DNA of 36,610 nucleotides. It comes from a virus. Taxonomy: Duplodnaviria > Heunggongvirae > Uroviricota > Caudoviricetes. This document shows positions 4,233 through 26,380 of this stretch, piece after piece. The stretch lies in the IMG/VR virus record IMGVR_UViG_2541047898_000006; one strand, 5' to 3'. Below the pieces are notes generated by a model. That model had not been told where the DNA came from and searched no databases. It worked only from the letters and a program-made list of their open reading frames with translations. The translations under genes and the position numbers were made by a program. Numbering within the stretch: position 1 is the first letter of the stretch; every line of letters begins with the position of its first letter.

Positions 4233-5086
4233 GCACCATCCTGAAATGGGCGGGAAATAAAACCGCCATTATGCCAGAACTGAAAAAATACCTTCCTGCT
4301 GGCCCGCGACTGGTTGAACCTTTCGCGGGTTCCTGTGCTGTGATGATGGAAACGGATTATCCCAGCTATCTGGTTGCGGATATTAATCCTGATTTAATCA
4401 ACCTCTATAAAAAGGTTGCCGCTGATTGTGAATCGTTTATATCTCGCGCCAGAGTTTTATTTGAGATCGCAAACAGGGAGGTGGCTTATTACAACATAAG
4501 GCAGGAGTTTAACTGCTCAACTGAAATTACTGATTTCATGAAAGCGGTATATTTCCTGTATCTTAATCGTCACGGTTACCGTGGTTTATGTCGCTATAAC
4601 AAGAGCGGGCATTTCAACATCCCCTACGGTAATTATAAAAATCCGTATTTCCCTGAAAAAGAACTTCGCACATTTGCAGAAAAAGCCCAGCGAGCAACGT
4701 TTATCTGCGCCAGCTTTGATGAAACGCTGGCGATGTTGAAGGCGGGAGATGTGGTGTATTGCGATCCGCCGTATGACGGTACGTTTTCCGGCTATCACAC
4801 TGATGGTTTCACTGAAGATGACCAGTATCACCTGGCATCCGTTCTTGAACATCGGTCATCAGAAGGACATCCAGTCATTGTTTCTAACAGTGACACATCC
4901 CTGATCCGTTCGCTGTATCGCAATTTTACTCACCACTATATCAAGGTAAAACGCAGCATCGGTGTGGCAGCTGGCGAGGGTAAATCAGCAACAGAAATCA
5001 TTGCTGTTTCCGGGCCGCGCTGCTGGATGGGATTTGATTATTCGCGTGGCGTGGATAGTTCTGCCGTGTACGGAGTACGTGCATGA
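4229..5086 (+). CDS. dam: DNA adenine methyltransferase (Dam family, GATC-type)
   Basis: Motifs [32 protein letters not shown] and VVYCDPPY closely parallel E. coli Dam. Start at the ATG overlapping the upstream stop, with GGAGG 6 nt upstream. Confidence 0.9.
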
Positions 5087-7497
5087 GTCATGCCGATATG
5101 AACAACTGCTGCGGCTTTAACGAGGCTGCTGCAGCATTCTCATGGAACAGCCCGAAAAAGGCCATTAACCCTTATCTGGACCCGGCGGAAGTTGCGCCGG
5201 TTTCTACGCTTTCAAACCTGATCACTCTGTACGCTGCCGATAACGAGCAGGAACAGTTGCGCCGCGAGGCACTGAGTGATCAGGTCTGGGAGCGTTATTT
5301 CTTTAATGAATCACGTGATCCTGTCCAGCGCGAAATGGAGCAGGATAAGCTCATTAGCCGGGCAAAGCTGGCGCATGAGCAGCAGCGTTTTAATTCAGAC
5401 ATGGTCATTCTGGCGGACGTCAACGCCCAGCCTTCCCATATCAGCAAGCCGCTGATGCAACGTATTGAATACTTCAGCAGCCTGGGCAGGCCAAAGGCTT
5501 ATTCCCGCTATTTACGTGAGACGATTAAGCCATGTCTGGAACGACTGGAGCATGTACGCGACAGTCAGCTATCTGCATCTTTTCGCTTTATGGCAAGCCA
5601 TGAAGGGCTGGACGGCCTGCTGATCCTGCCTGAAATGAGTCAGGATCAGGTGAAACGCCTGTCCACCCTGGTAGCTGCGCATATGAGTATGTGCCTTGAT
5701 GCAGCTTGTGGTGATTTGTATGCCACCGATGACGTTAAGCCAGAAGAAATCCGCAAGACATGGGAAAAGGTGGCAGCGGAAACCCTGCGTCTGGATGTCA
5801 TCCCACCTGCGTTTGAGCAACTCCGTCGGAAAAGAAACCGCCGTAAACCCGTGCCCTATGAACTCATTCCGGGTTCGTTGGCGCGTATGTTGTGTGCCGA
5901 CTGGTGGTATCGGAAATTATGGAAGATGCGTTGTGAATGGCGGGAAGAGCAGTTGCGTGCTGTCTGCCTGGTCAGCAAAAAAGCATCCCCCTATGTCAGC
6001 TATGAAGCAGTGATGCATAAACGTGAGCAGCGCCGTAAGTCGCTGGAGTTTTTCCGTTCTCATGAACTGGTGAACGAAGACGGCGACACGCTGGATATGG
6101 AAGATGTGGTAAACGCCAGCAGCAGCAACCCGGCGCATCGCCGCAATGAGATGATGGCCTGTGTTAAAGGTCTGGAGCTTATCGCGGAAATGCGCAGTGA
6201 CTGCGCCGTTTTCTACACTATCACCTGTCCGTCGCGTTTCCATTCCACGCTCAATAACGGCAGACCCAACCCGACCTGGACAAACTCGACGGTAAGACAA
6301 AGCAGCGACTATCTGGTCGGCATGTTTGCTGCATTTCGTAAGGCGATGCACAAAGCCGGATTGCGCTGGTATGGCGTGCGGGTGGCTGAGCCGCATCATG
6401 ACGGTACAGTTCACTGGCACCTGTTGTGTTTTATGCGCAAAAAAGACCGCCGCGCCATCACTGCATTACTGCGTAAGTTTGCCATCCGTGAAGACCGCGA
6501 GGAGCTGGGCAATAACACTGGGCCGCGCTTTAAGTCTGAGTTGATTAACCCGCGCAAAGGAACGCCGACAAGCTACATCGCGAAATATATCAGTAAGAAC
6601 ATTGACGGGCGTGGTCTGGCTGGCGAGATCAGCAAGGAAACGGGTAAATCTCTGCGTGATAACGCTGAATACGTTAATGTCTGGGCGTCTCTGCATCGTG
6701 TTCAGCAATTCCGCTTCTTTGGCATTCCGGGGCGTCAGGCTTACCGTGAACTGCGATTGCTGGCTGGTCAGGCGGCAAGGCAACAGGGTGACAAAAAAGC
6801 AGGTGCTCCGGTACTGGATAACCCGCGCCTTGATGCCATTCTGGCTGCTGCTGATGCTGGCTGTTTTGCCACCTACATTATGAAGCAGGGCGGCGTGTTG
6901 GTTCCCCGCAAATATCACTTGATCAGAACCGCTTATGAAATCAACGAAGAGCCGACAGCCTATGGCGATCACGGCATTCGTATTTATGGCATCTGGTCAC
7001 CCATTGCAGAGGGCAAGATCTGCACTCATGCAGTGAAGTGGAAAATGGTTCGTAAGGCCGTTGACGTTCAGGAGGCGGCAGCCGACCAGGGCGCTTGCGC
7101 CCCTTGGACTCGTGGCAATAACTGTCCCCTTGCTGAAAATTTGTACCAACAAGGGAAAGACAAATCAGCTGATGGAGATACCAGAACGGATATCACTCGC
7201 ATGGATGACAAGGAGTTGCACGATTACCTGCACAGTATGAGCAAAAAAGAGCGCCGGGAACTGGCAGCAAGGTTACGCCTGGTGAAACCGAAACGGCGTA
7301 AAGACTACAAACAGCGAATTACAGACCATCAGCGACTGCAGCTCGTGTATGAACTGAAGTCCAGAGGATTTGATGGCAGCGAGAAAGAGGTCGATTTGCT
7401 CCTTCGCGGTGGCAGTATTCCGTCAGGAGCAGGCCTGCGTATCTTCTATCGGAACCAGCGTTTGCAGGAAGATGATAAGTGGCGGAACCTGTATTAA
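5083..7497 (+). CDS. A: Replication initiation protein A (rolling-circle nickase, P2 gpA-like)
   Basis: 804-aa ORF at the gpA position with a YIAKYISKN-type active-site Tyr motif; translationally coupled to dam. Confidence 0.9.
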
Positions 7498-7588
7498 TCA
7501 CGTGGGTTAACAATTCGTGCTCTTAATAATACCAGGCATATCAGGCTGATGAACGTAAAAAACGTTTTACATCAGTAAGATTATTATA

Positions 7589-7608
7589 TACTGTAAATAT
7601 AAACAGTG
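7589..7608 (+). promoter_or_regulatory. LexA (SOS) box TACTGTAAATATAAACAGTG overlapping a sigma70-like promoter
   Basis: CTGT-N8-ACAG with an AT-rich spacer, close to the consensus TACTGT(AT)4ACAGTA. A -35-like TTTACA (7566..7571) sits 17 bp upstream of TACTGT (7589..7594), so the box overlaps the -10. Confidence 0.6.
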
Positions 7609-7649
7609 GTTGTGCATACAGTGTTGCTTGTGGTGTCATAGGAGGAAAG

Positions 7650-7820
7650 ATGCAGGACTATTTTTTGGAGTCTTTGAAGCTCCAGCGCATTGATTTTTTT
7701 CTTAAGCTTGTAGCGGCTAGTGAGTGTAGTGATGAAGAGAAGGGGCTGGCTCTGCAGTGGGTTTCTGAGTTGACTGATGAGCTGATGGCGAGAATTCGCG
7801 CTCATGAATACAACCACTAG
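7650..7820 (+). CDS. Small SOS-controlled protein (56 aa), candidate Tum-like antirepressor
   Basis: ATG at 7650 preceded by AGGAGG (7640..7645), about 40 nt downstream of the LexA-box promoter. Translation MQDYFLESLKLQRIDFFLKLVAASECSDEEKGLALQWVSELTDELMARIRAHEYNH; too short to appear in the ORF track. Confidence 0.45.
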   Translation: MQDYFLESLKLQRIDFFLKLVAASECSDEEKGLALQWVSELTDELMARIRAHEYNH

Positions 7821-7993
7821 ATGGATCTTCCCAGTAGTTTTTCGAAACTGAAAACAACCGAGTGAAAGTTACGACACTTGAGATTTTCACTTGGGTTATA
7901 ATCAGAATACTTGTTTTCGTCCACAAATGTACATGCCATGCATTAATGTGGTGATAGCTTTCAATTTTTACTAAATGGTTTCAATTGCTTCTT

Positions 7994-8539
7994 ATGAATC
8001 ATGTAATGTTAGATATAGAAACATTGGATGTTGAAAAAACAGCTTATATCCTTTCAGTTGGTGCGGCTTTTTTCGTGCCGGAGACTGGCGAGATTGGTCC
8101 GGGTTTCTATCAAGTTATTTCGCTTGATCATGAACAAGCAGGCAGAACCATTGCCCCCTCTACTGTAAAGTGGTGGATGAATCAAAGTACTGAAGCTAAA
8201 AACGAAAATTTTGATGGCACTAAGGACCTTTTAGAGGTTCTGAATGAATTTGTGGCATTTATTCATCATAATCGTACTGGCCGAGTAAAAGTGTGGGGAA
8301 ACGGGAAAGAGTTTGACTGCACGATCATGCATCATGCCCTGTTACAGGCGGGTCTGGATTGCCCATGGTCATTCAGAGATACTCTTGACGTTAGAACCAT
8401 CTTAGCACTTGGTGAAAGCAAAGGAATTTTTTCTCATGCTGATAAAAATTTCACTGGCATTAGGCACACAGCATTCGATGATGTTTTATTTCAGATCGCA
8501 CAGGTTTCTCACATCTATATGAATTTAAATAAAAAATAA
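7994..8539 (+). CDS. DEDDh-type 3'-5' exonuclease (DnaQ-like)
   Basis: N-terminal DIETLD (Exo I motif) and C-terminal HTAFDD (H-x4-D) motifs. AT-rich. Start ambiguous (TTG 7985, ATG 7994 or ATG 8006). Confidence 0.7.
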   Translation: MNHVMLDIETLDVEKTAYILSVGAAFFVPETGEIGPGFYQVISLDHEQAGRTIAPSTVKWWMNQSTEAKNENFDGTKDLLEVLNEFVAFIHHNRTGRVKVWGNGKEFDCTIMHHALLQAGLDCPWSFRDTLDVRTILALGESKGIFSHADKNFTGIRHTAFDDVLFQIAQVSHIYMNLNKK

Positions 8540-8554
8540 ATATAGGACTTAGCT

Positions 8555-9466
8555 ATGGATTGCTTAGATGTAACCTATTGGACTGAGCTAGATGTTTTCG
8601 CACAGTATCCTGTTGGTGCTCGCTCTAAGGCATTGGTTATTTCCCCTGATGTTGCCCCCCATGGTATCAAAGCATCGTGGCCGTATCTTTTTAAGAGAAG
8701 TATTAAAAAATACCCAGATCAATTTTGGTGTGAGATCGTTGCCTACAGGATTGGATTGCAGCTTGGTTTTAATGTCCCCAAAGCAGTTCCTTCGTTAAAG
8801 ACTAATGATTTGGGGCATACGTTTTGCGGGGCCCTCATTGAGTGGTTTCATCATAAAGATTATGAGAAATTTGCTCCCGCTGGTGATTACTTTGTTCGAA
8901 GAGATCCAAATTTTGATCGTGAGAAAGGAGCTAAGCATTCCATTGAAGGGCTGAGGATTATCGCGAAAGCTCTTAAAGTTGACTATGTTGAGTGGTTGGA
9001 GAATATGGCTCTCTTTGACGCAGTAATAGGTAATACAGATAGACATCAAGAAAACTGGGGGTTTATCTTCTCACCTTTAACCAGCGAGTGTCAGCTTGCA
9101 CCATTTTTCGATAATGGTACGAGCTTATGCTACGAACGTTTTCCGGAACATGTTGCTGATTGGACCGATCATAGACTCAGGGAGCATGTTAGCCGGGGAA
9201 AGCATCATTTGCGTAAGACTCTGGGCAAAGATGAGTATCAGAGATTAGGTCATTTAGAGTTAATCAAAGAACTTTGTGATAAAAAAGAAGAATTAAAACA
9301 GCGGGTAGCTGAAAGACTGGCTCGTTTGAACCATGACTTTTGGGACTCAACTTTTGCGGAGTTGACGGAAATAAACTGCCCTGTTCCGCTGACTAGAGAA
9401 CGTGCTGCATGGATTGTTCGTGTAACAAACATGCGTATTGAACTGATTAAAGGTGTTACTTCATGA
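8555..9466 (+). CDS. HipA-like Ser/Thr kinase core (HipT-like, lacks the HipA N-terminal subdomain)
   Basis: Aligns by eye to E. coli HipA motifs: ATP-binding loop PVGARSKAL (HipA VAGAQEKTA), EIVAYRIGLQLGFNVPKA (HipA LLLAKELGLNVPDA), catalytic loop IGNTDRHQENWGF (HipA IGATDGHAKNFS), Mg-binding LAPFFDNG (HipA LTPFYDII). AGGA SD; 15 nt after the exonuclease stop. Confidence 0.7.
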   Translation: MDCLDVTYWTELDVFAQYPVGARSKALVISPDVAPHGIKASWPYLFKRSIKKYPDQFWCEIVAYRIGLQLGFNVPKAVPSLKTNDLGHTFCGALIEWFHHKDYEKFAPAGDYFVRRDPNFDREKGAKHSIEGLRIIAKALKVDYVEWLENMALFDAVIGNTDRHQENWGFIFSPLTSECQLAPFFDNGTSLCYERFPEHVADWTDHRLREHVSRGKHHLRKTLGKDEYQRLGHLELIKELCDKKEELKQRVAERLARLNHDFWDSTFAELTEINCPVPLTRERAAWIVRVTNMRIELIKGVTS

Positions 9467-10167
9467 CTATCTTAATAGAAAAAATTCCCATGCCAAGTAG
9501 GCTCTTACTGACATGGCAACCGACCGACGGCGGCTCTCGCTATGTCGTTGGTGAACTTCTTCAAGATGAGTCTGAAGGCTACGAGTTTAATTATCTTACG
9601 GATAGCAAAGATTTTGCTAAAGCTGTGGATAAAGGCTTTCACGGTTTTCCTGCTTTTGACATAAAAGTTACGACTCATCGCAAAGACGTTATGCAAACCT
9701 TTTCAAGAAGGTTACCCTCTAGGAAAAGAGAAGATTTTGCCGATTACTTGCTGACGTTTCGTCTTCCTGCTGATTTTAGAGAGAATGACTTCGTTTTGCT
9801 CGCTTGTACTGGCGGAAAAGTGGCTAGTGATGGTTTTTATTTTGTCCCAGACTTGTCTTCTATTCGGCCACCTTTTGATTATGTCATGGAGGTCGCCGGA
9901 ACGAGACACATGATTAAGGAAGGGCGTCTAGCTCTTGACGAGATATCAATTGGTGATGAAGTCATATTGCGCAATGAAGATACCAATACTGTTGATCCGC
10001 TGGCCATATTAGTAACGAAAAACGACAATCATCTAGGATATGTCAACAAGGCATTGTGCGCCGCATTACGAGATCTTGGTAAAAACCATGATATCAGTGG
10101 AGTGGTCGTACGTAAAAATGGCTCTTCGGATAGGCCTTTGATTTATGCAAAAGTATCTGTTAGATGA
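9463..10167 (+). CDS. Two-domain protein: HipA N-terminal-like (HipS-like) domain fused to a C-terminal HIRAN domain
   Basis: Start overlaps the kinase stop (ATGA). N-terminus LLLTWQPTDGGSRYVVGELLQDESEGYEFNY and FSRRLPSRKRED parallel the HipA N-terminus (LVTWMNNQRVGELTKLANGAHTFKY; FDNLLPDSPIVRDR). C-terminus GDEVILRNEDTNTVDPLAILV...LGYVNKALCAALRDLG...GVVV matches the HIRAN pattern (E-V-L-R-x-P-x-N-x-x-D-x-N-A-I-x-V ... G-[YH]-[VL]-x-K-x-L-A-x-x-L). Confidence 0.55.
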   Translation: MTILIEKIPMPSRLLLTWQPTDGGSRYVVGELLQDESEGYEFNYLTDSKDFAKAVDKGFHGFPAFDIKVTTHRKDVMQTFSRRLPSRKREDFADYLLTFRLPADFRENDFVLLACTGGKVASDGFYFVPDLSSIRPPFDYVMEVAGTRHMIKEGRLALDEISIGDEVILRNEDTNTVDPLAILVTKNDNHLGYVNKALCAALRDLGKNHDISGVVVRKNGSSDRPLIYAKVSVR

Positions 10168-10475
10168 TGCATGTTTATTCATGCTTGCTAGTGATGCTGC
10201 ATTTATAGAGTCTGTCAACTATGGAGATTTTTTCGTCTCATGCAACTACATTAAATTACCATTAAGTGGGTTGACGTTGCGGGGGAAGCATTACACGTCA
10301 GTATTGGTGCGTCTGAAGTGTCATGCCGAAAAGGTATGAAAAAGCCGCTTGGTAACATAACTATTCGCAATGATGTTGTAGGAAGCGAACTGGAAATGAT
10401 AGCAATGGATGCTGTTGATGTAGTGTATGTCTATGCTGCATGAGTTTGCATGAACGTTTGAGGCTCGTTTTTGTT

Positions 10476-10502
10476 AAGGCCCGCCAGAACTGGCGGGCTT
10501 TT
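10476..10502 (+). terminator. Rho-independent terminator ending the cargo operon
   Basis: GC-rich hairpin GCCCGCCAG / CTGGCGGGC followed by TTTT on the plus strand. Confidence 0.6.
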
Positions 10503-10547
10503 GCTCATGTCATGCAGGTGCATGAAAACCACTTCATAAAGCGGGCA

Positions 10548-10566
10548 GGCGTGGCGGGGATACGAG
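10548..10566. other. Putative cos (cohesive end) site GGCGTGGCGGGGATACGAG
   Basis: The first 13 nt match what I recall as the conserved start of P2/186 cohesive ends (GGCG[A/T]GGCGGGGAAAGCA.). It lies between the hotspot operon and the portal gene and is flanked by GGGGATACG direct repeats (10556..10564 and 10578..10586). Confidence 0.4.
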
Positions 10567-10653
10567 CGCGCGCTGATGGGGATACGGTGTTTTTAGTAAG
10601 GTTATGAGGTAGAATTTGACGCGGTTTTTTTAAGCATATTGAGGTGTAAATAG

Positions 10654-11199
10654 ATGGATGCTATTACTGGATTATTGGATTTTTTTAGAAAGATTCCAAC
10701 GGCACTTCTTGTAGCTATTACATGTGGTTTAAGTTTGATCCTTTTTTTGCCAGAATCTTTAGCTTCTAAAGTTGCGGTTGATGGTTTCCGTAAAGAATAT
10801 AGAAATTTCATAGGACCAGCATTTTTACTGGCTGTCTCTTTTTTAGTTGCAAGAGTATATCAGTTTTTTCATGACCTATATGGCGATAGACAAAGGCACA
10901 AAGTACGTATCTCTTATTTGGAGAAGCTAACTCCTGAGGAGAAGGGATACCTCTGGTCTTATATAATTGATGGCGAAAACTCACTAATGTGTGGTCCTGA
11001 AGATGGTGTTATGGGGGGGTTGGTTGCTAAGCGCATAACCTATAGAGCTGCAAACGTGGGCAGTATGATTGACGGATTCGCTTTCAATTTGCAGCCGTGG
11101 GCTCGCGAGCATTTACAGAACAACACTCATTTATTAGAAGGAGCGGTCGGTAGGGCAATGACACCGGGTGAGAAACTAGGATTCAGGCGTAGATTTTAA
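10654..11199 (+). CDS. Membrane protein (two N-terminal TM helices plus cytoplasmic domain); possible superinfection-exclusion-type cargo
   Basis: 181-aa ORF with GAGGTG SD. Hydrophobic segments TALLVAITCGLSLILFL and GPAFLLAVSFLVARVY. Sits between the putative cos and the portal stop, where P2 has only about 100 bp. Confidence 0.55.
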   Translation: MDAITGLLDFFRKIPTALLVAITCGLSLILFLPESLASKVAVDGFRKEYRNFIGPAFLLAVSFLVARVYQFFHDLYGDRQRHKVRISYLEKLTPEEKGYLWSYIIDGENSLMCGPEDGVMGGLVAKRITYRAANVGSMIDGFAFNLQPWAREHLQNNTHLLEGAVGRAMTPGEKLGFRRRF

Positions 11200-11243
11200 C
11201 CAGTCGCACACAGGCGATGCTTGACTGGTTAGACAGGGATAAT

Positions 11244-12281
11244 CTATTCAGCGTTCAACTGGTAGGGGTCAAAAGATATTATTGGCTCATTTAACCATTC
11301 GTTAAGTTCTTCAAGTCGCTTTTGTAAAGGAATTAACTCATTTCGCACAAAAACGCGGCTGGCCTTTTCCACATCCCCAAAACCTCCAACATTATTTGGC
11401 ATAATCCCCATCATTTGCGGCGGCACGCGGTGCGCCGCCATCATGTCATCCCGGCTCACGTTCTTGATGTTTAGAAACTCATCCTTTGCTGCGACCTCTG
11501 ACAACGGGATGATCTGAAGCCCATCCTTTTTGCCGTTAGGCGAGTACATAAACAGGTTGCGGAAGTTGCCCGGACCTTTGGCGCTTTTCATCGCGTTGCG
11601 GAGGTTGTTCACGTCCTCCTGGTTCTGCGCAGCATCGGTCATGTACATGATGAAGCCTGCATGACTGCCGTTAATGTAATACTTGCGGCGGAACAGCGTG
11701 GCGGACTCGTTGAGCAGGGCTGACGGAATGGCAGAAAGATAACCGGGCAGGCCGTAGATCTCCTGGTTAATGTCCGGTTCCATCAGATGAAAAATGCTTC
11801 CTTTCGTGAACTGATACGGCTGGGTTGTCATACCGTATTGCACAAACCAGTAGGTATCCAGGTCTAACCCGCGTCGGGTGTATTTTGCTAGTGCAGGCTC
11901 AAGGGCGATAACTTCACCGAAGCGGTTCGTGCGTTTCTCCAGGTAGGCGTTACCAAATACCAGATAGTCCTGCACAAAACGCGAAAAAGCTTGCTGGCTG
12001 AGCAGAGGATGAGGGATATAGGTACTGGTCAGAATGTTGCACTTTACTGCAATCGGGGAACTGTGATGCACGGCAGCGCGGAAGGTGCGCGCCAGTCCGT
12101 CAAAGCTGACGGGCGGCTCATACCAACGGTCCATCTGTACGCATTCCACATAGTCCAGTAATTCTCGGCGGTCCAGAACAGGAACGGGATCGCCGAAGCT
12201 GAATGCTTCGGCTGAAGTCTGGCTTTTATGCTGGTTCTGGTTCGTCGACGCAGTGCGGTTTTTCTTACTCTTTCCCATCAA
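11244..12281 (-). CDS. Q: Portal protein (gpQ)
   Basis: 345 aa on the minus strand, size and position as P2 gpQ, overlapping the terminase gene. Confidence 0.88.
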   Translation of the reverse strand: MMGKSKKNRTASTNQNQHKSQTSAEAFSFGDPVPVLDRRELLDYVECVQMDRWYEPPVSFDGLARTFRAAVHHSSPIAVKCNILTSTYIPHPLLSQQAFSRFVQDYLVFGNAYLEKRTNRFGEVIALEPALAKYTRRGLDLDTYWFVQYGMTTQPYQFTKGSIFHLMEPDINQEIYGLPGYLSAIPSALLNESATLFRRKYYINGSHAGFIMYMTDAAQNQEDVNNLRNAMKSAKGPGNFRNLFMYSPNGKKDGLQIIPLSEVAAKDEFLNIKNVSRDDMMAAHRVPPQMMGIMPNNVGGFGDVEKASRVFVRNELIPLQKRLEELNEWLNEPIISFDPYQLNAE

Positions 12282-14044
12282 AAAATCTCCACAATATTGC
12301 TGGTATTGGCGGACTCGCCCTGCAGCGGTTCGTTAAACAGTGCGTGCATCGTTGCCCAGGCCAGATCGGCGTGGCTGGCTTCTTCGCTGCGGCTGGCTTC
12401 ATAGGTTGGGCGGTTGCCACTGGCGGTGGTTGCGCGACGGATTGCCATGAATGACTGCGCAATGTCGGTGTGCCCGGCGTCAAACTCCAGACGGCGGTGG
12501 CTGATAATGTCGTAGGCCTTGAGTACCAGGGCATTTTTAACATTGGGGTTGTAGACAAACTCCCGGACGGCAGGAAAGAACGCTTTCACGTTCTCATAAA
12601 CCCCGTGACCAACGCCGGTTGAGTCGATACCGATATAGGTCACGTTGTACTGTTCGGTCAGTTTTTTGATGGCGTCAGCCTGGGCGCGGAAGTCCATCCC
12701 GCGCCACTGGTGACGCTCAAGAATGCGGAACTTACCGCCCGGCACGGCTGGCGGTGCCACCACCACGCATCCGGCGCTGTCGCCGTTCTGCGTACCTTTT
12801 GCCGGGTCATAACCGATCCACACTTCGCGCCAGCCAAACGGGCGCAGGGCCAGTGCATGAAAGTCGGTCCATACTTCCCAGCTGTCCACCATGCACGCCT
12901 GCAGTTCGCTGAGCGGGAACACGGACGCGAGATCGTCCACGAACTCGCACATCAGCAGGTTCTGGTATTCGTCCGGGCTGTACTCCATGCGCAGCTGGTC
13001 GAGGTCGAACAGGTTACAGCCGCCGCGCACCGCATCTTCCACGGTGACTATCTGGCGGTATTGCCCGTCTGCGCACAGCAGGCCGGGGGCCAGATTGCTG
13101 TGGGACAGGTCGATGTCCACCTTGTCAGCTTTGTTGCGTCCACGGTTGAACAGCGCACCGGACCAGAACGGATAAGCACTGTGGGTCAGGCTGGATGGTG
13201 TGGAAAAATAGGTCTGTCGCCATTTCTTGTGAATAGCCATACCGGAAGCCACTTTGCGTAGCTCCTGAAATTTCGGTATCCAGAAATATTCATCCAGATA
13301 CAGGTTGCCGTGATAACTCTGGGCAGTGCGGGCATTGGTGCCGAGGAAGTAAAGTGTGGCCCCGTTAGGAAGCACCATCGGATCGCCTTTCAGCTCCACC
13401 TCCACTTCTTTGGCGAAGTCGATGATGTACTGCTTAAAGACGTGGGCCTGTGCCTTACTGGCGGAAAGAAAAATCTGGTTACGTCCGGTAAGCAGAGCGT
13501 CAATCAGGGCTTCACGGGCAAAGTAAAAGGTCGCGCCGATCTGGCGTGACTTCAGCAGGTTGCGGATGCGGTTGGTTTTTCCGGCTTCCCACCAGTGGCG
13601 CTGGTAGTTGAACATGGAGGAATGGAAGATTTCTTCCAGCTTCTCAATCTGTTCATCGGTGAAGACATTCTTTTCCGGTTGACGGCGCGGGCCTTTGTTG
13701 CGGTTGGCGACGTTAGGGTTTAAGTCGGCTTCGTTGCCGCCATTGTTAAACTTGCCGATCCGCGCGTGGCGCTCCGACTGGCGCGCCAGCAGGTCAATTT
13801 CTTTAAAGTCTTTCCCTTCTTTGTGCTCCTTCATAATGAGCTGGCAGTAGCGTGCGGCGGTGGTGAGCTGCATCTGATCCAGCGGCCCATAGTCACCCCA
13901 CTTGTCGCGTTTTTTCCAGCTGTGAACGGTTGCAACTTTCTCGCCCAACATTTCAGCAATGCGGGCGACGCGGTATCCCTGAAAGTACAGCAGCATGGCC
14001 TGCCGACGGGGATCGAGATCTGCGGGTGTCAGTGTGGTGTTCAT
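12278..14044 (-). CDS. P: Terminase large (ATPase) subunit (gpP)
   Basis: 588 aa, divergent from the capsid operon; size and synteny as P2 gpP. Confidence 0.88.
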   Translation of the reverse strand: MNTTLTPADLDPRRQAMLLYFQGYRVARIAEMLGEKVATVHSWKKRDKWGDYGPLDQMQLTTAARYCQLIMKEHKEGKDFKEIDLLARQSERHARIGKFNNGGNEADLNPNVANRNKGPRRQPEKNVFTDEQIEKLEEIFHSSMFNYQRHWWEAGKTNRIRNLLKSRQIGATFYFAREALIDALLTGRNQIFLSASKAQAHVFKQYIIDFAKEVEVELKGDPMVLPNGATLYFLGTNARTAQSYHGNLYLDEYFWIPKFQELRKVASGMAIHKKWRQTYFSTPSSLTHSAYPFWSGALFNRGRNKADKVDIDLSHSNLAPGLLCADGQYRQIVTVEDAVRGGCNLFDLDQLRMEYSPDEYQNLLMCEFVDDLASVFPLSELQACMVDSWEVWTDFHALALRPFGWREVWIGYDPAKGTQNGDSAGCVVVAPPAVPGGKFRILERHQWRGMDFRAQADAIKKLTEQYNVTYIGIDSTGVGHGVYENVKAFFPAVREFVYNPNVKNALVLKAYDIISHRRLEFDAGHTDIAQSFMAIRRATTASGNRPTYEASRSEEASHADLAWATMHALFNEPLQGESANTSNIVEIF

Positions 14045-19998: not shown

Positions 19999-20694
19999 TC
20001 ATGTCAAATATTGATAACTTTTATCAATTTCAAGTTTGTGAAATTTGGTTATCTTTGAATCAATGTATAAATCTATGAACATTGCTATCCCTATCATAAA
20101 TATAAATAGAATGCTTAAATAAATAATGGGGGTGGCAATCATAATTGTAAATTTGTTCTTGTCTGTCGTTTTTGCTAACTCTTCTTTCTTTTCAGGAATT
20201 AGCAAGTAGCTACAAATGAAATCTTTTGTGGCTTGTTGGATTGAAGTGATCTTATCAAGCTGTGACTTGTCAACACATACATCTGGTGTGATATTCCATT
20301 CAGGTGTGTATGGTATGTTTTGTGCGTGTTCTGGTTTCATCCAAAAGGAATCTTTTGTTTCTCTATGTGTGATTTCAATCCAATTTACGGGTTCTTTGGC
20401 GATGAAATAGGTAAATTTATAAAAACAAAGTGCTGAGGTCATAATGACTGCAATTCCAAATGAGACGATAAATATTTTATGTTTTTTAATATGGGGTTTT
20501 GTGCTTAACTTATATTTGCAAAGACTAAGTCTAATAATTGGCTTTGATATTCCAATCTTTGATATCAAAAAGTCTTCTTCTGGATAGGATGTGTTTAACC
20601 ATGACCAAAAAGCCGAGATGCCACCTATAAGCCATTTAAATATAAGACCACCAATGGCCGTAGCTAAAAATGTATTTATTTTATCAATTTCCAT
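19999..20694 (-). CDS. AT-rich membrane protein of unknown function (cargo in the S-V slot)
   Basis: 231-aa minus-strand ORF inside the otherwise plus-strand late region. GGGGA SD 5 nt upstream. Three hydrophobic helices, at the N-terminus, near residue 80 and near the C-terminus. Visibly lower GC than neighbours. Confidence 0.65.
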   Translation of the reverse strand: MEIDKINTFLATAIGGLIFKWLIGGISAFWSWLNTSYPEEDFLISKIGISKPIIRLSLCKYKLSTKPHIKKHKIFIVSFGIAVIMTSALCFYKFTYFIAKEPVNWIEITHRETKDSFWMKPEHAQNIPYTPEWNITPDVCVDKSQLDKITSIQQATKDFICSYLLIPEKKEELAKTTDKNKFTIMIATPIIYLSILFIFMIGIAMFIDLYIDSKITKFHKLEIDKSYQYLT

Positions 20695-25242: not shown

Positions 25243-25369
25243 CTGAGAATTAAATGGTTAGTATCATCCTCCCCCACACTGCCTATATGGTATGAATACG
25301 AGGGGGAGGCTGTTTGTTGTCTGTTTCTGTGATAATATTAGATTCTCGTTTTTTAATAAAAAAATCAAT

Positions 25370-26380
25370 ATGAAAGAGAATAAAATACGTTCTGCCGATG
25401 GCGTGAGAGGTTTCGCTTTGATGATTGTTGTGGTGATGCATGCTACGGGACTATTCTTTCCCTCACTTCATGATCATCTCGGAGGTACGGGGCAGCCCGG
25501 TGTTTGGTTGTTTTTTGTTCTTAGCGCCTTTTTGTTGACACATAAATTTATTAATTCTGGTTTTTCGTTTTTGAATGTGTTGAGTTATCTTTTAGGGCGA
25601 ACAATAAGGATATTACCGATTTTTTATATTGCAGTATTAATTTATTACCTTATGGGATTTTATGATTTAGAGAAAATGAAATCGATAATTTCATTTGATA
25701 GTACTTACATCCATCTCTGGACTATTCCGATAGAATTCAAGTTTTACTTTTTGTTGCCGATTGTGGTTTATCTCGCATCTAGTATCCAGAAAGTTGCAGG
25801 TAGAAAATATTCTTTGTTATTTTTGATATTGTTAACCTTAGCGTTCGCTTTTATATACCCTTATACGGATGACGAAATCAACGGTAGGCTACCGTATTAC
25901 ATTCCTGTTTTTATGTATGGAATTATAATTGCGTTTATGTATAACTATTTTCAAATTAAAATATCATCTCTCGTTAGTGATGGGGTGTCAATTGCGATTA
26001 TATTAATATTTATAATGTTGACCCCTCCTTTTCAGGGGGCTAATGGTTGGTTGGGTAATAAATTTGTGGTATTAGGGCCATTTATTGCTCTCTTTGTATA
26101 TCTGCAAGTAAATTCCAGTGGGTATGTAAGCGCGGTTTTATCTTCAAAAATCATGGCGGATTTGGGGAAATATAGTTTTTCAATTTATTTGTTTCATATA
26201 ATGATAATTTTTATTGTTTATCCTAAATTTTTGGATAATGTTACTGCATACTTAGTTACTATAGCTTTATGTATTGGCGGTGGGGCTATTGCCTATCATT
26301 GCATTGAATCTCCCTTGGAATCGTTCAGACATAAGCTTATGAAAAGAATAACGCAGGCTTATCAGAATCAAAATATTTAA
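25370..26380 (+). CDS. Acyltransferase-3 family integral membrane protein (probable O-antigen/LPS O-acetyltransferase, lysogenic conversion cargo)
   Basis: Start at internal ATG 25370 (MKENKIRSADGVRGFALMIVVVMHA: R-x10-H motif of the acyltransferase-3 family). Roughly 10 hydrophobic helices. Strongly AT-rich. Sits in the G-FI slot where P2 carries Z/fun. Confidence 0.8.
   Translation: MKENKIRSADGVRGFALMIVVVMHATGLFFPSLHDHLGGTGQPGVWLFFVLSAFLLTHKFINSGFSFLNVLSYLLGRTIRILPIFYIAVLIYYLMGFYDLEKMKSIISFDSTYIHLWTIPIEFKFYFLLPIVVYLASSIQKVAGRKYSLLFLILLTLAFAFIYPYTDDEINGRLPYYIPVFMYGIIIAFMYNYFQIKISSLVSDGVSIAIILIFIMLTPPFQGANGWLGNKFVVLGPFIALFVYLQVNSSGYVSAVLSSKIMADLGKYSFSIYLFHIMIIFIVYPKFLDNVTAYLVTIALCIGGGAIAYHCIESPLESFRHKLMKRITQAYQNQNI

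Follow-up and report, generated by a model that had tools for sequence, protein, structure and literature searches.

The gene at 7994..8539 of the virus record IMGVR_UViG_2541047898_000006 encodes a predicted DEDDh 3'-5' exonuclease of 181 amino acids (aa), and this gene almost certainly heads a cargo cassette of three genes and is not a part of the phage backbone. The whole stretch of DNA that was analysed, 36,610 nucleotides (nt) and here called the window, is a complete P2/186-like prophage. The two genes that follow the exonuclease gene encode a HipA-family kinase and a HIRAN-domain protein, and the exonuclease has kept its place directly upstream of the kinase as the three proteins diverged to about 40% identity. 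Taken as a whole, the data are probably best explained by an exonuclease that belongs to the cassette as an accessory third gene and may set the trigger of the HIRAN/kinase pair.

The open reading frame of the exonuclease lies on the plus strand, with ATG at 7994 and TAA at 8537-8539. Its product matches Pfam PF16473 (Rv2179c-like 3'-5' exoribonuclease domain) with E=1.2e-50 and 172 bits against a cut-off of 27, over positions 1-176 of the 177 in the profile; RNase_T is a weak second Pfam match, and PHROG 255 'exonuclease' is matched with E=6e-61. NCBIfam had no informative model for the exonuclease, the kinase or the HIRAN protein. Neither an alignment of 13 homologues nor one of 20 shows any change at the DEDDh residues D7, E9, D108, H158 and D163. 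When the AlphaFold2 model of the protein (pLDDT, predicted local distance difference test, 92.4) was compared with solved structures by Foldseek, the top match was T4 DexA (8KEL, E=1e-11, query TM-score (TMq) 0.81), followed by RNase T, ERI/3'hExo, TREX1-like proteins and Cap18 from a cyclic-oligonucleotide-based anti-phage signalling system (CBASS), and Orn-type dinucleases appeared only as distant fold matches. The DexA chains 8KEL/8KEN are also the best sequence match among solved structures (hidden Markov model E=1.5e-16). Judged by the Pfam match, the five catalytic residues and the DexA-like model, the protein belongs to the Rv2179c/DexA-like DEDDh family and is predicted to have 3'-5' exonuclease activity, which agrees with a preliminary description of this DNA.

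Two other starts are available for the gene, TTG at 7985 and ATG at 8006. RefSeq begins the identical gene of E. coli DS26-1 (locus L001, 8452-8985) at the internal ATG that corresponds to 8006 in the window, giving a protein of 177 aa. The four residues ahead of this ATG (MNHV/MNNL) are kept by homologues of all clades, and the N-termini of the homologues follow the pattern MNH/MNN-x-M-L/I-D-x-E-T in every clade. The ATG at 7994 is favoured as the start because of this conservation.

The second gene of the cassette, at 8555..9466 on the plus strand, encodes a HipA-family Ser/Thr kinase of the HipI type (303 aa), and the third, at 9463..10167 on the same strand, a HIRAN-domain protein of the HipN type (234 aa). 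The kinase matches HipA_C with E=3.6e-10 and the PADLOC model PDC-M03A with E=4e-36, and its catalytic-loop GNTDRHQENWG and DNGTS motifs are invariant among 21 homologues. The third protein matches the HIRAN profile with E=2.3e-7 and 31 bits (cut-off 24.7), with the domain at residues 140-218 and no other domain in the Pfam scan; PDC-M03B is matched with E=9.5e-37 and PHROG 8026 with E=4e-80. By these profile matches the pair is hipIN, described by Gerdes in 2021, which is the same as the PADLOC candidate system PDC-M03. According to that description (Gerdes, Baerentsen and Brodersen 2021, mBio), the kinase HipI is a small member of the HipA family, and the putative antitoxin HipN combines a HipS-like N-terminal domain, which would neutralise the kinase, with a HIRAN domain, the latter thought to bind DNA ends. 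The hipIN genes are bicistronic in that work and the fused HipL is monocistronic, and neither an exonuclease nor a prophage context is mentioned (Gerdes 2021, mBio). The layout of a kinase of about 300 aa followed by a HIRAN protein is shared with the window, and the HipL layout of about 547 aa is shared with a sister clade that is described below. PADLOC models PDC-M03 as two genes, whereas a third gene is conserved here in P2-like prophages. Two apparent literature matches to the module were rejected: the 'HIRAN' match in Millman 2022 is the author name Hirano, and the HipA system of DefensePredictor is a different pair, HipAD.

Co-transcription of the three genes is probable because of their close spacing and the lack of internal terminators. 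As stated in the preliminary description, the exonuclease stop is 15 nt before the kinase start, and this spacer (8540..8554, plus strand, atatAGGActtagct) carries a Shine-Dalgarno-like AGGA, the presumed ribosome-binding site, 7 nt ahead of the kinase ATG at 8555. The end of the kinase gene and the start of the HIRAN gene share 4 nt, ATGA at 9463-9466. Inside the three genes, terminator-like matches come about as often as chance would give (5 seen versus 3.6 expected in a scan of 7400-11300). These features support the operon layout that had been suggested, and its closing terminator, previously placed at 10476..10502, was recovered as an 11-base-pair (bp) GC-rich hairpin at 10476-10501 followed by the U-run UUUUGCUC, in a 61-nt stretch that folds at -22.6 kcal/mol. 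A simple terminator scan overlooked this hairpin owing to its short T-run; the same kind of scan detected no terminator between gpA/orf91 and the exonuclease. Upstream of the exonuclease the promoter scan gave no canonical sigma-70 promoter, and promoter matches in the region are at or below chance. The 5' leader of the cassette (7835..7993, plus strand), a putative promoter region that moves together with the three genes, contains TATAAT/TACAAT, a conserved sequence at 7897-7902 whose -35 element is poor.

Comparisons with other genomes separate the exonuclease from the phage backbone. The gpA gene of the window (5083-7497) is present with at least 80% coverage, and mostly 90-99% identity, in 1,221 of 5,426 complete E. 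coli genomes. The exonuclease was found in six of the 5,426, by megablast and by sensitive blastn alike, and exactly the same six hold the kinase and HIRAN genes, so the exonuclease is absent from more than 99% of the E. coli prophages that bear this gpA. The distribution that the preliminary description had regarded as contrary to a cassette role, with the exonuclease in most P2-like prophages whatever their cargo, was thus not seen (6 of 1,221 gpA-carrying genomes). Unrelated cargo and no exonuclease are found in two sister prophages that share the insertion site and have a gpA 96-98% identical. In a metagenomic P2-like phage (L084) gpA is only 32% identical, yet the stretch 7835-10292, including 160 nt upstream of the exonuclease, is shared at 85% nucleotide identity; two other loci (L105 and L107) have a gpA that is 85% identical to that of the window, but all three cassette proteins are only about 40% identical. 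The exonuclease does not behave as a P2 backbone gene in that it is rare among gpA carriers, lies outside the blocks of homology and diverges independently of gpA (r=0.12). The cassette, from about 7835 to a point between 10292 and 10420, moves as one unit between P2-like prophages.

The hotspot between gpA and the portal gene consists of two slots, the first with the exonuclease, kinase and HIRAN genes and the second with a SieB-like gene. In nucleotide comparisons, homology to sister prophages with other cargo ends at 7826-7830, just past an orf91-like small gene (7650..7820, plus strand, PHROG 698 E=1.6e-33) which is the final backbone gene ahead of the variable region and lies outside the cassette. 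Homology returns at 10421-10574 and is then broken again up to the portal gene. Between the HIRAN gene and this point lies the 3' untranslated tail of the cassette (10168..10420, plus strand), where similarity to L084 extends to 10292 and similarity to the sister prophages is back only at 10421. The returning segment (10421..10574, plus strand) is a junction element of about 150 bp that holds the terminator hairpin and closes slot 1. It is 86-88% identical in sister prophages with unrelated cargo, and it seems to split the hotspot into two independently exchangeable slots. E. coli DS26-1 has the same three genes at 99-100% identity with different slot-2 content (an IS66 element and other genes), and slot 2 of the window is occupied by a SieB-family superinfection-exclusion gene (10654-11199, PF14163 E=2e-22). 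The old/tin locus of P2 is found at the same site, between gpA/orf91 and the portal gene, and follows the same logic of swappable defence cargo, but its genes are unrelated to the cassette and Old is a different type of nuclease (Rousset 2022, PMC9122126). The main text of that paper says nothing about the combination of exonuclease, kinase and HIRAN genes (PMC9122126).

The strength of the linkage was assessed by aligning kinase homologues and scanning three collections: species-representative genomes, viral contigs and metagenome contigs. Among 80 loci kept from the species-representative genomes, a HIRAN gene follows the kinase in nearly all, and an Rv2179c-like gene is found in four, always immediately upstream. 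The exonuclease is present in 26 of 63 kinase loci on viral contigs, all 26 flanked by P2-type gpA and/or portal genes, and in 12 of 80 on metagenome contigs, 11 of which are P2-like. In all, about 40 loci have the exonuclease directly ahead of the kinase. The distance from the exonuclease stop to the kinase start was 3-19 nt in all 36 loci measured, and in a further locus, from Serratia, there is no gap but an overlap of 17 nt. Across 17 representative loci, pairwise identities of the exonuclease correlate with those of the kinase (r=0.95) and the HIRAN protein (r=0.96) but not with those of gpA (0.12) or the portal protein (0.16), and none of 2,000 permutations in a Mantel test of exonuclease against kinase reached the observed value.

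A sister clade (clade B) has the kinase and the HIRAN protein fused in one HipL-type protein of 546-554 aa that starts 3-12 nt past the exonuclease stop. Split and fused forms share one kinase clade, and a fusion or fission event has therefore taken place. Carriers of the fused form are Escherichia phage 899 (L003, PV533660, 6562-8205) and the loci L011, L013, L015, L318-L325 and L333. The GenBank coding sequence of the fused protein in phage 899 is 28 codons too short and is labelled 'hypothetical protein'. The only isolated phages with the module are phage 899 and the identical Yersinia phage GMG73, and a tblastn search of the plasmid database PLSDB with the kinase gave no match. The fused form is found in 61 E. 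coli genomes; the queries with the exonuclease and with the fused gene each match 61, and among the E. coli matches listed the exonuclease is directly ahead of the fused gene. Within clade B alone the correlations are 0.92 for the kinase, 0.92 for the HIRAN part and 0.23 for gpA, and the branching order of kinases and of exonucleases in neighbour-joining trees is largely the same.

The unit is also kept where the P2 context has been reduced or is missing. A decayed 186-like prophage of Kluyvera intermedia (L325) has lost its gpA, portal and terminase genes and retains the exonuclease and the fused kinase-HIRAN gene, with CI, CII, Fil and DinI genes ahead of them and a capsid gene behind. In a Shewanella locus the three genes are located beside groESL and an IS3 element, with no P2 context. 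When sampling was done from the exonuclease side, relatives 81-93% identical to the window protein were linked to kinase/HIRAN genes, one of them with its neighbourhood checked, and relatives 85, 58, 53 and 51% identical to the protein of the phage 899 type all precede a fused kinase-HIRAN gene; unlinked relatives appeared at 51% in Neisseriaceae and at 49% in Citrobacter. None of the sampled P2-like loci had this exonuclease in the slot with other cargo. The preliminary description had left the choice between an independent accessory gene and a third component that acts on DNA ends together with the HIRAN protein; co-occurrence favours the third component, and the joint action on DNA ends would be a further step. 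Functional coupling of some kind between the exonuclease and the kinase/HIRAN pair is reasonably likely.

Several observations weigh against this explanation. About 90% of hipIN pairs are without the exonuclease, and among the upstream neighbours in diverse Proteobacteria (L004-L083, n=73) there were 10 Methylase_S genes (specificity subunits of type I restriction-modification), 4 Rv2179c-like genes and 3 N6_Mtase genes, with no other DEDD family among the 25 most frequent Pfam families of these 73 neighbours, families with a single neighbour included. A P2-like locus (L121) has a hipIN of a different kinase clade and no exonuclease. Relaxed tblastn searches found nothing credible as a decayed exonuclease remnant upstream of 106 exonuclease-less kinases, and repeated recent loss of the gene is therefore unsupported. 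Seen from the other side, the exonuclease family occurs without the kinase in 78 of 80 sampled viral loci. Some P2-like prophages carry an Rv2179c-like exonuclease in the early operon, between Fil and Dam/gpA, together with unrelated hotspot cargo (L234 and L235, 6013-6588, in E. coli LZSFT34 and Z1323PEC0010, with a HEPN protein as the cargo; L232, 2396-3145). Chromosomal singletons in Gibbsiella and Serratia (L086-L088), 46-50% identical, are the nearest relatives of the window exonuclease that are not linked to a kinase. In neighbour-joining trees, which carry no branch support, the exonuclease-linked kinases fall into two groups with exonuclease-less kinases between them, and the two exonuclease groups sit beside different unlinked relatives, which is compatible with one gain or with two. 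The literature searched gave no experimental study of hipIN, hipL or PDC-M03, and no experiment that links the module to defence. Finally, neighbours could stay together without any joint function if slots are exchanged through flanking homology, and this lowers the confidence in a shared role, although slot-wise recombination is considered insufficient for an adjacency that is kept down to 40% identity, through fusion or fission, and outside the P2 slot.

Only two related kinase clades have the exonuclease, which is not a general component of hipIN. It is best read as an accessory, not a core, part of phage-borne hipIN.

The Gibbsiella and Serratia singletons are found at a conserved site beside dadX/dadA with no phage genes nearby, and they could have given rise to the phage gene or be a copy of it that has become domesticated. 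In diverse Proteobacteria the hipIN genes are often located directly behind type I restriction-modification genes, consistent with a defence-island context. A distant hipIN lineage on viral contigs (L130-L146), about 25% identical to the window pair, is placed right after an Amidase_2 lysis gene in another type of phage; ten neighbours of distant viral hipIN loci either encode lysis or regulatory functions or match nothing in Pfam, and no nuclease family was found among them.

Stand-alone relatives of the exonuclease are known, and they form the basis of the alternative that survives best, namely that two independent systems stand side by side: a DexA/EcD ('HREX') antiviral nuclease directed against modified phage DNA and an unrelated hipIN. 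T4 DexA (PDB 8KEL/8KEN) and EcD share with the window protein the PF16473 domain and the DEDDh site; DexA, like the window protein, is a small phage-associated 3'-5' exonuclease, and it is the closest solved relative. EcD, an E. coli homologue of DexA, reportedly protects against T4 on its own (PMC12153337), a finding which also counts against a cassette role. In EcD/HREX a Trp and an Asp that are proposed to recognise 5-hydroxymethylcytosine (5hmC) are conserved and the D90 tetramer contact of DexA is lost (Kang 2025, PMC12153337); the literature searched on Rv2179c-like enzymes in phage defence gave nothing besides this paper. The same exonuclease family is present alone in hundreds of prophages, it is commonly found alone in the early-left accessory region of lambdoid phages, most hipIN pairs have no exonuclease, and defence genes are known to stack in P2 hotspots (PMC9122126). 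However, DexA and EcD are described as stand-alone proteins, whereas the window gene is fixed upstream of a kinase/HIRAN module. The window protein is only about 20% identical to DexA (181 versus 227 aa), and in a rough pairwise alignment that covers DexA residues 1-192 only it appears to be without several DexA loops, including the region around D169 that is said to read 5hmC, which falls in a gap; the D90 region aligns unreliably in the same comparison. Unrelated neighbours in the hotspot reshuffle fast, as slot 2 differs even between cassettes that are 99% identical, but the adjacency of exonuclease and kinase outlasts divergence to about 40% identity with a gap of 3-19 nt, correlated divergence and a fusion or fission event. 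The non-P2 locus and the decayed prophage retain the adjacency too, and no sampled P2-like locus combines this exonuclease with other cargo in the slot. Independence of the two systems is unlikely on this evidence.

A second, quite different family of DEDD nucleases has been found next to HipA and HIRAN genes. Deoxydinucleotide-specific nucleases of the NrnC type (diDNases) are in about one third of cases encoded directly beside HipA and HIRAN genes in Actinomycetes and Clostridia (Mortensen 2025, Nucleic Acids Research, PMC11706625), and the functional link between diDNase, HipA and HIRAN was left open by the authors (PMC11706625). These clusters resemble the window cassette in that a small 3'-5' nuclease of the DEDD superfamily adjoins HipA and HIRAN genes on mobile elements. 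The diDNases are NrnC-like with a C-terminal tyrosine and the Exo II motif HHAxFD(L/I)xF, whereas the window protein has the DEDDh type of site (H158) and the Exo II region WGNGKEFDCTI, and the hosts of the diDNases are Gram-positive, whereas the window-type cassette belongs to gamma-proteobacterial P2-like phages. Going by these motifs, the window exonuclease is not a diDNase of the NrnC type, and the resemblance is a parallel in gene neighbourhood, not homology. The window cassette appears to be a second case of a DEDD nuclease, from a different family, that is paired with HipA/HIRAN.

How an accessory exonuclease might set the trigger can be outlined from the partners. The HIRAN domain of HLTF has a known ligand, 3'-OH DNA ends. 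With this ligand and the published model of HipN taken together, the HIRAN protein of the cassette would restrain the kinase and sense free 3'-OH DNA ends, and the freed kinase would phosphorylate an essential translation factor so that the infection is aborted. The exonuclease would trim 3' single-stranded tails or clear short 3'-OH oligodeoxynucleotides. Replication of P2 starts from a 3'-OH nick made by gpA. Clearing by the exonuclease would set the threshold for activation, and the kinase would then stay silent in the lysogen and during the prophage's own rolling-circle replication from the gpA nick. Such a setting would be most important for a module whose carrier phage replicates in this way. 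The clearing direction is favoured because the Gram-positive diDNase cleaves only deoxydinucleotides, and such an enzyme can remove a small ligand but can neither attack a genome nor create ends. The results themselves do not constrain the direction of the effect, whether to dampen or to generate a signal, and this counts among the points against the proposed role; a threshold or ligand-clearing function in particular is only a tentative suggestion.

The exonuclease could instead be a positive part of the system, which makes the DNA sensed by the HIRAN protein by resecting invading ends or serves as an effector nuclease under control of the kinase. The evidence of co-inheritance is equal for this reading, and enzymes like DexA break down both single- and double-stranded DNA, starting at 3' ends (PMC12153337). 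DEDDh exonucleases are also known as accessory genes in defence operons; CBASS Cap18 (PDB 7T2S, TMq 0.66) is such a 3'-5' exonuclease, although no CBASS cyclase or effector is present here and its fold similarity is below that of DexA or RNase T. On the other hand, a nuclease cannot generally be needed for the sensing or effector step since about 90% of hipIN loci have none, and the Gram-positive counterpart cleaves dinucleotides only, which leaves no place for genome resection or an effector role (PMC11706625). A positive role is very unlikely.

It is likewise improbable that the exonuclease is a housekeeping or counter-defence gene of the phage (replication, recombination or anti-defence) that stands at the edge of the hotspot by chance: other P2-like prophages do hold a member of the family in the early operon from Fil to Dam/gpA, lambdoid phages hold one in the early-left region, and read-through from the early promoter is possible with no terminator detected after gpA/orf91, but the gene is missing from nearly all E. 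coli prophages with this gpA, lies inside the swappable segment past the homology breakpoint, diverges without correlation to gpA and portal, and remains linked to the kinase in loci that have lost the replication genes (Kluyvera) or never had them (Shewanella).

The accessory role in the trigger of hipIN can be extended to both nuclease families. HIRAN-coupled HipA kinases might sense short 3'-OH DNA and might have recruited a DEDD nuclease at least twice independently to erase this signal, an NrnC-type enzyme in Gram-positives and a DexA/Rv2179c-type enzyme in gamma-proteobacterial P2-like phages. This extension is speculative and rather doubtful. If it is true, the exonuclease would be a built-in off switch or threshold setter with a logic like that of the ring nucleases in type III CRISPR systems, and a prophage with rolling-circle replication could carry a suicide kinase triggered by DNA ends without killing itself on induction.

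The remainder of the window includes an integrase gene at 1-1209, genes for CI, CII and a Dam methylase, and, beyond the hotspot, the portal gene (11244-12281) and the terminase gene (12278-14044) on the minus strand. Two further genes, both in the late region, are likely cargo. One encodes a DUF6216 protein (19999-20694) and is on the minus strand, opposite to the flanking late genes. The other, just past a tail-fibre assembly gene, encodes an Acyl_transf_3 acyltransferase (25292-26380, plus strand) and is possibly a surface-modifying conversion gene.

The hipIN/hipL system (PDC-M03) is widespread, and prediction places it among toxin-antitoxin or anti-phage systems. A stable form with three genes, carried by P2-like prophages of Enterobacterales and relatives, appears to be new, as far as the literature searched shows, and suggests that the two-gene kinase/HIRAN system has an unrecognised third part in phages. 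Models of PDC-M03 as a defence system should allow for an optional third gene, and labels such as 'hypothetical' or 'exodeoxyribonuclease VIII' in P2-like prophages can be corrected. The linkage of the exonuclease, together with the pairing in Gram-positives, points to 3'-OH DNA ends or short oligodeoxynucleotides as the input of the HIRAN sensor, and the exonuclease offers a simple genetic handle on what HIRAN-coupled kinases sense. If the exonuclease shields the prophage that carries it against the prophage's own system, the cassette would illustrate clearly how a temperate phage can render abortive-infection genes harmless to itself.

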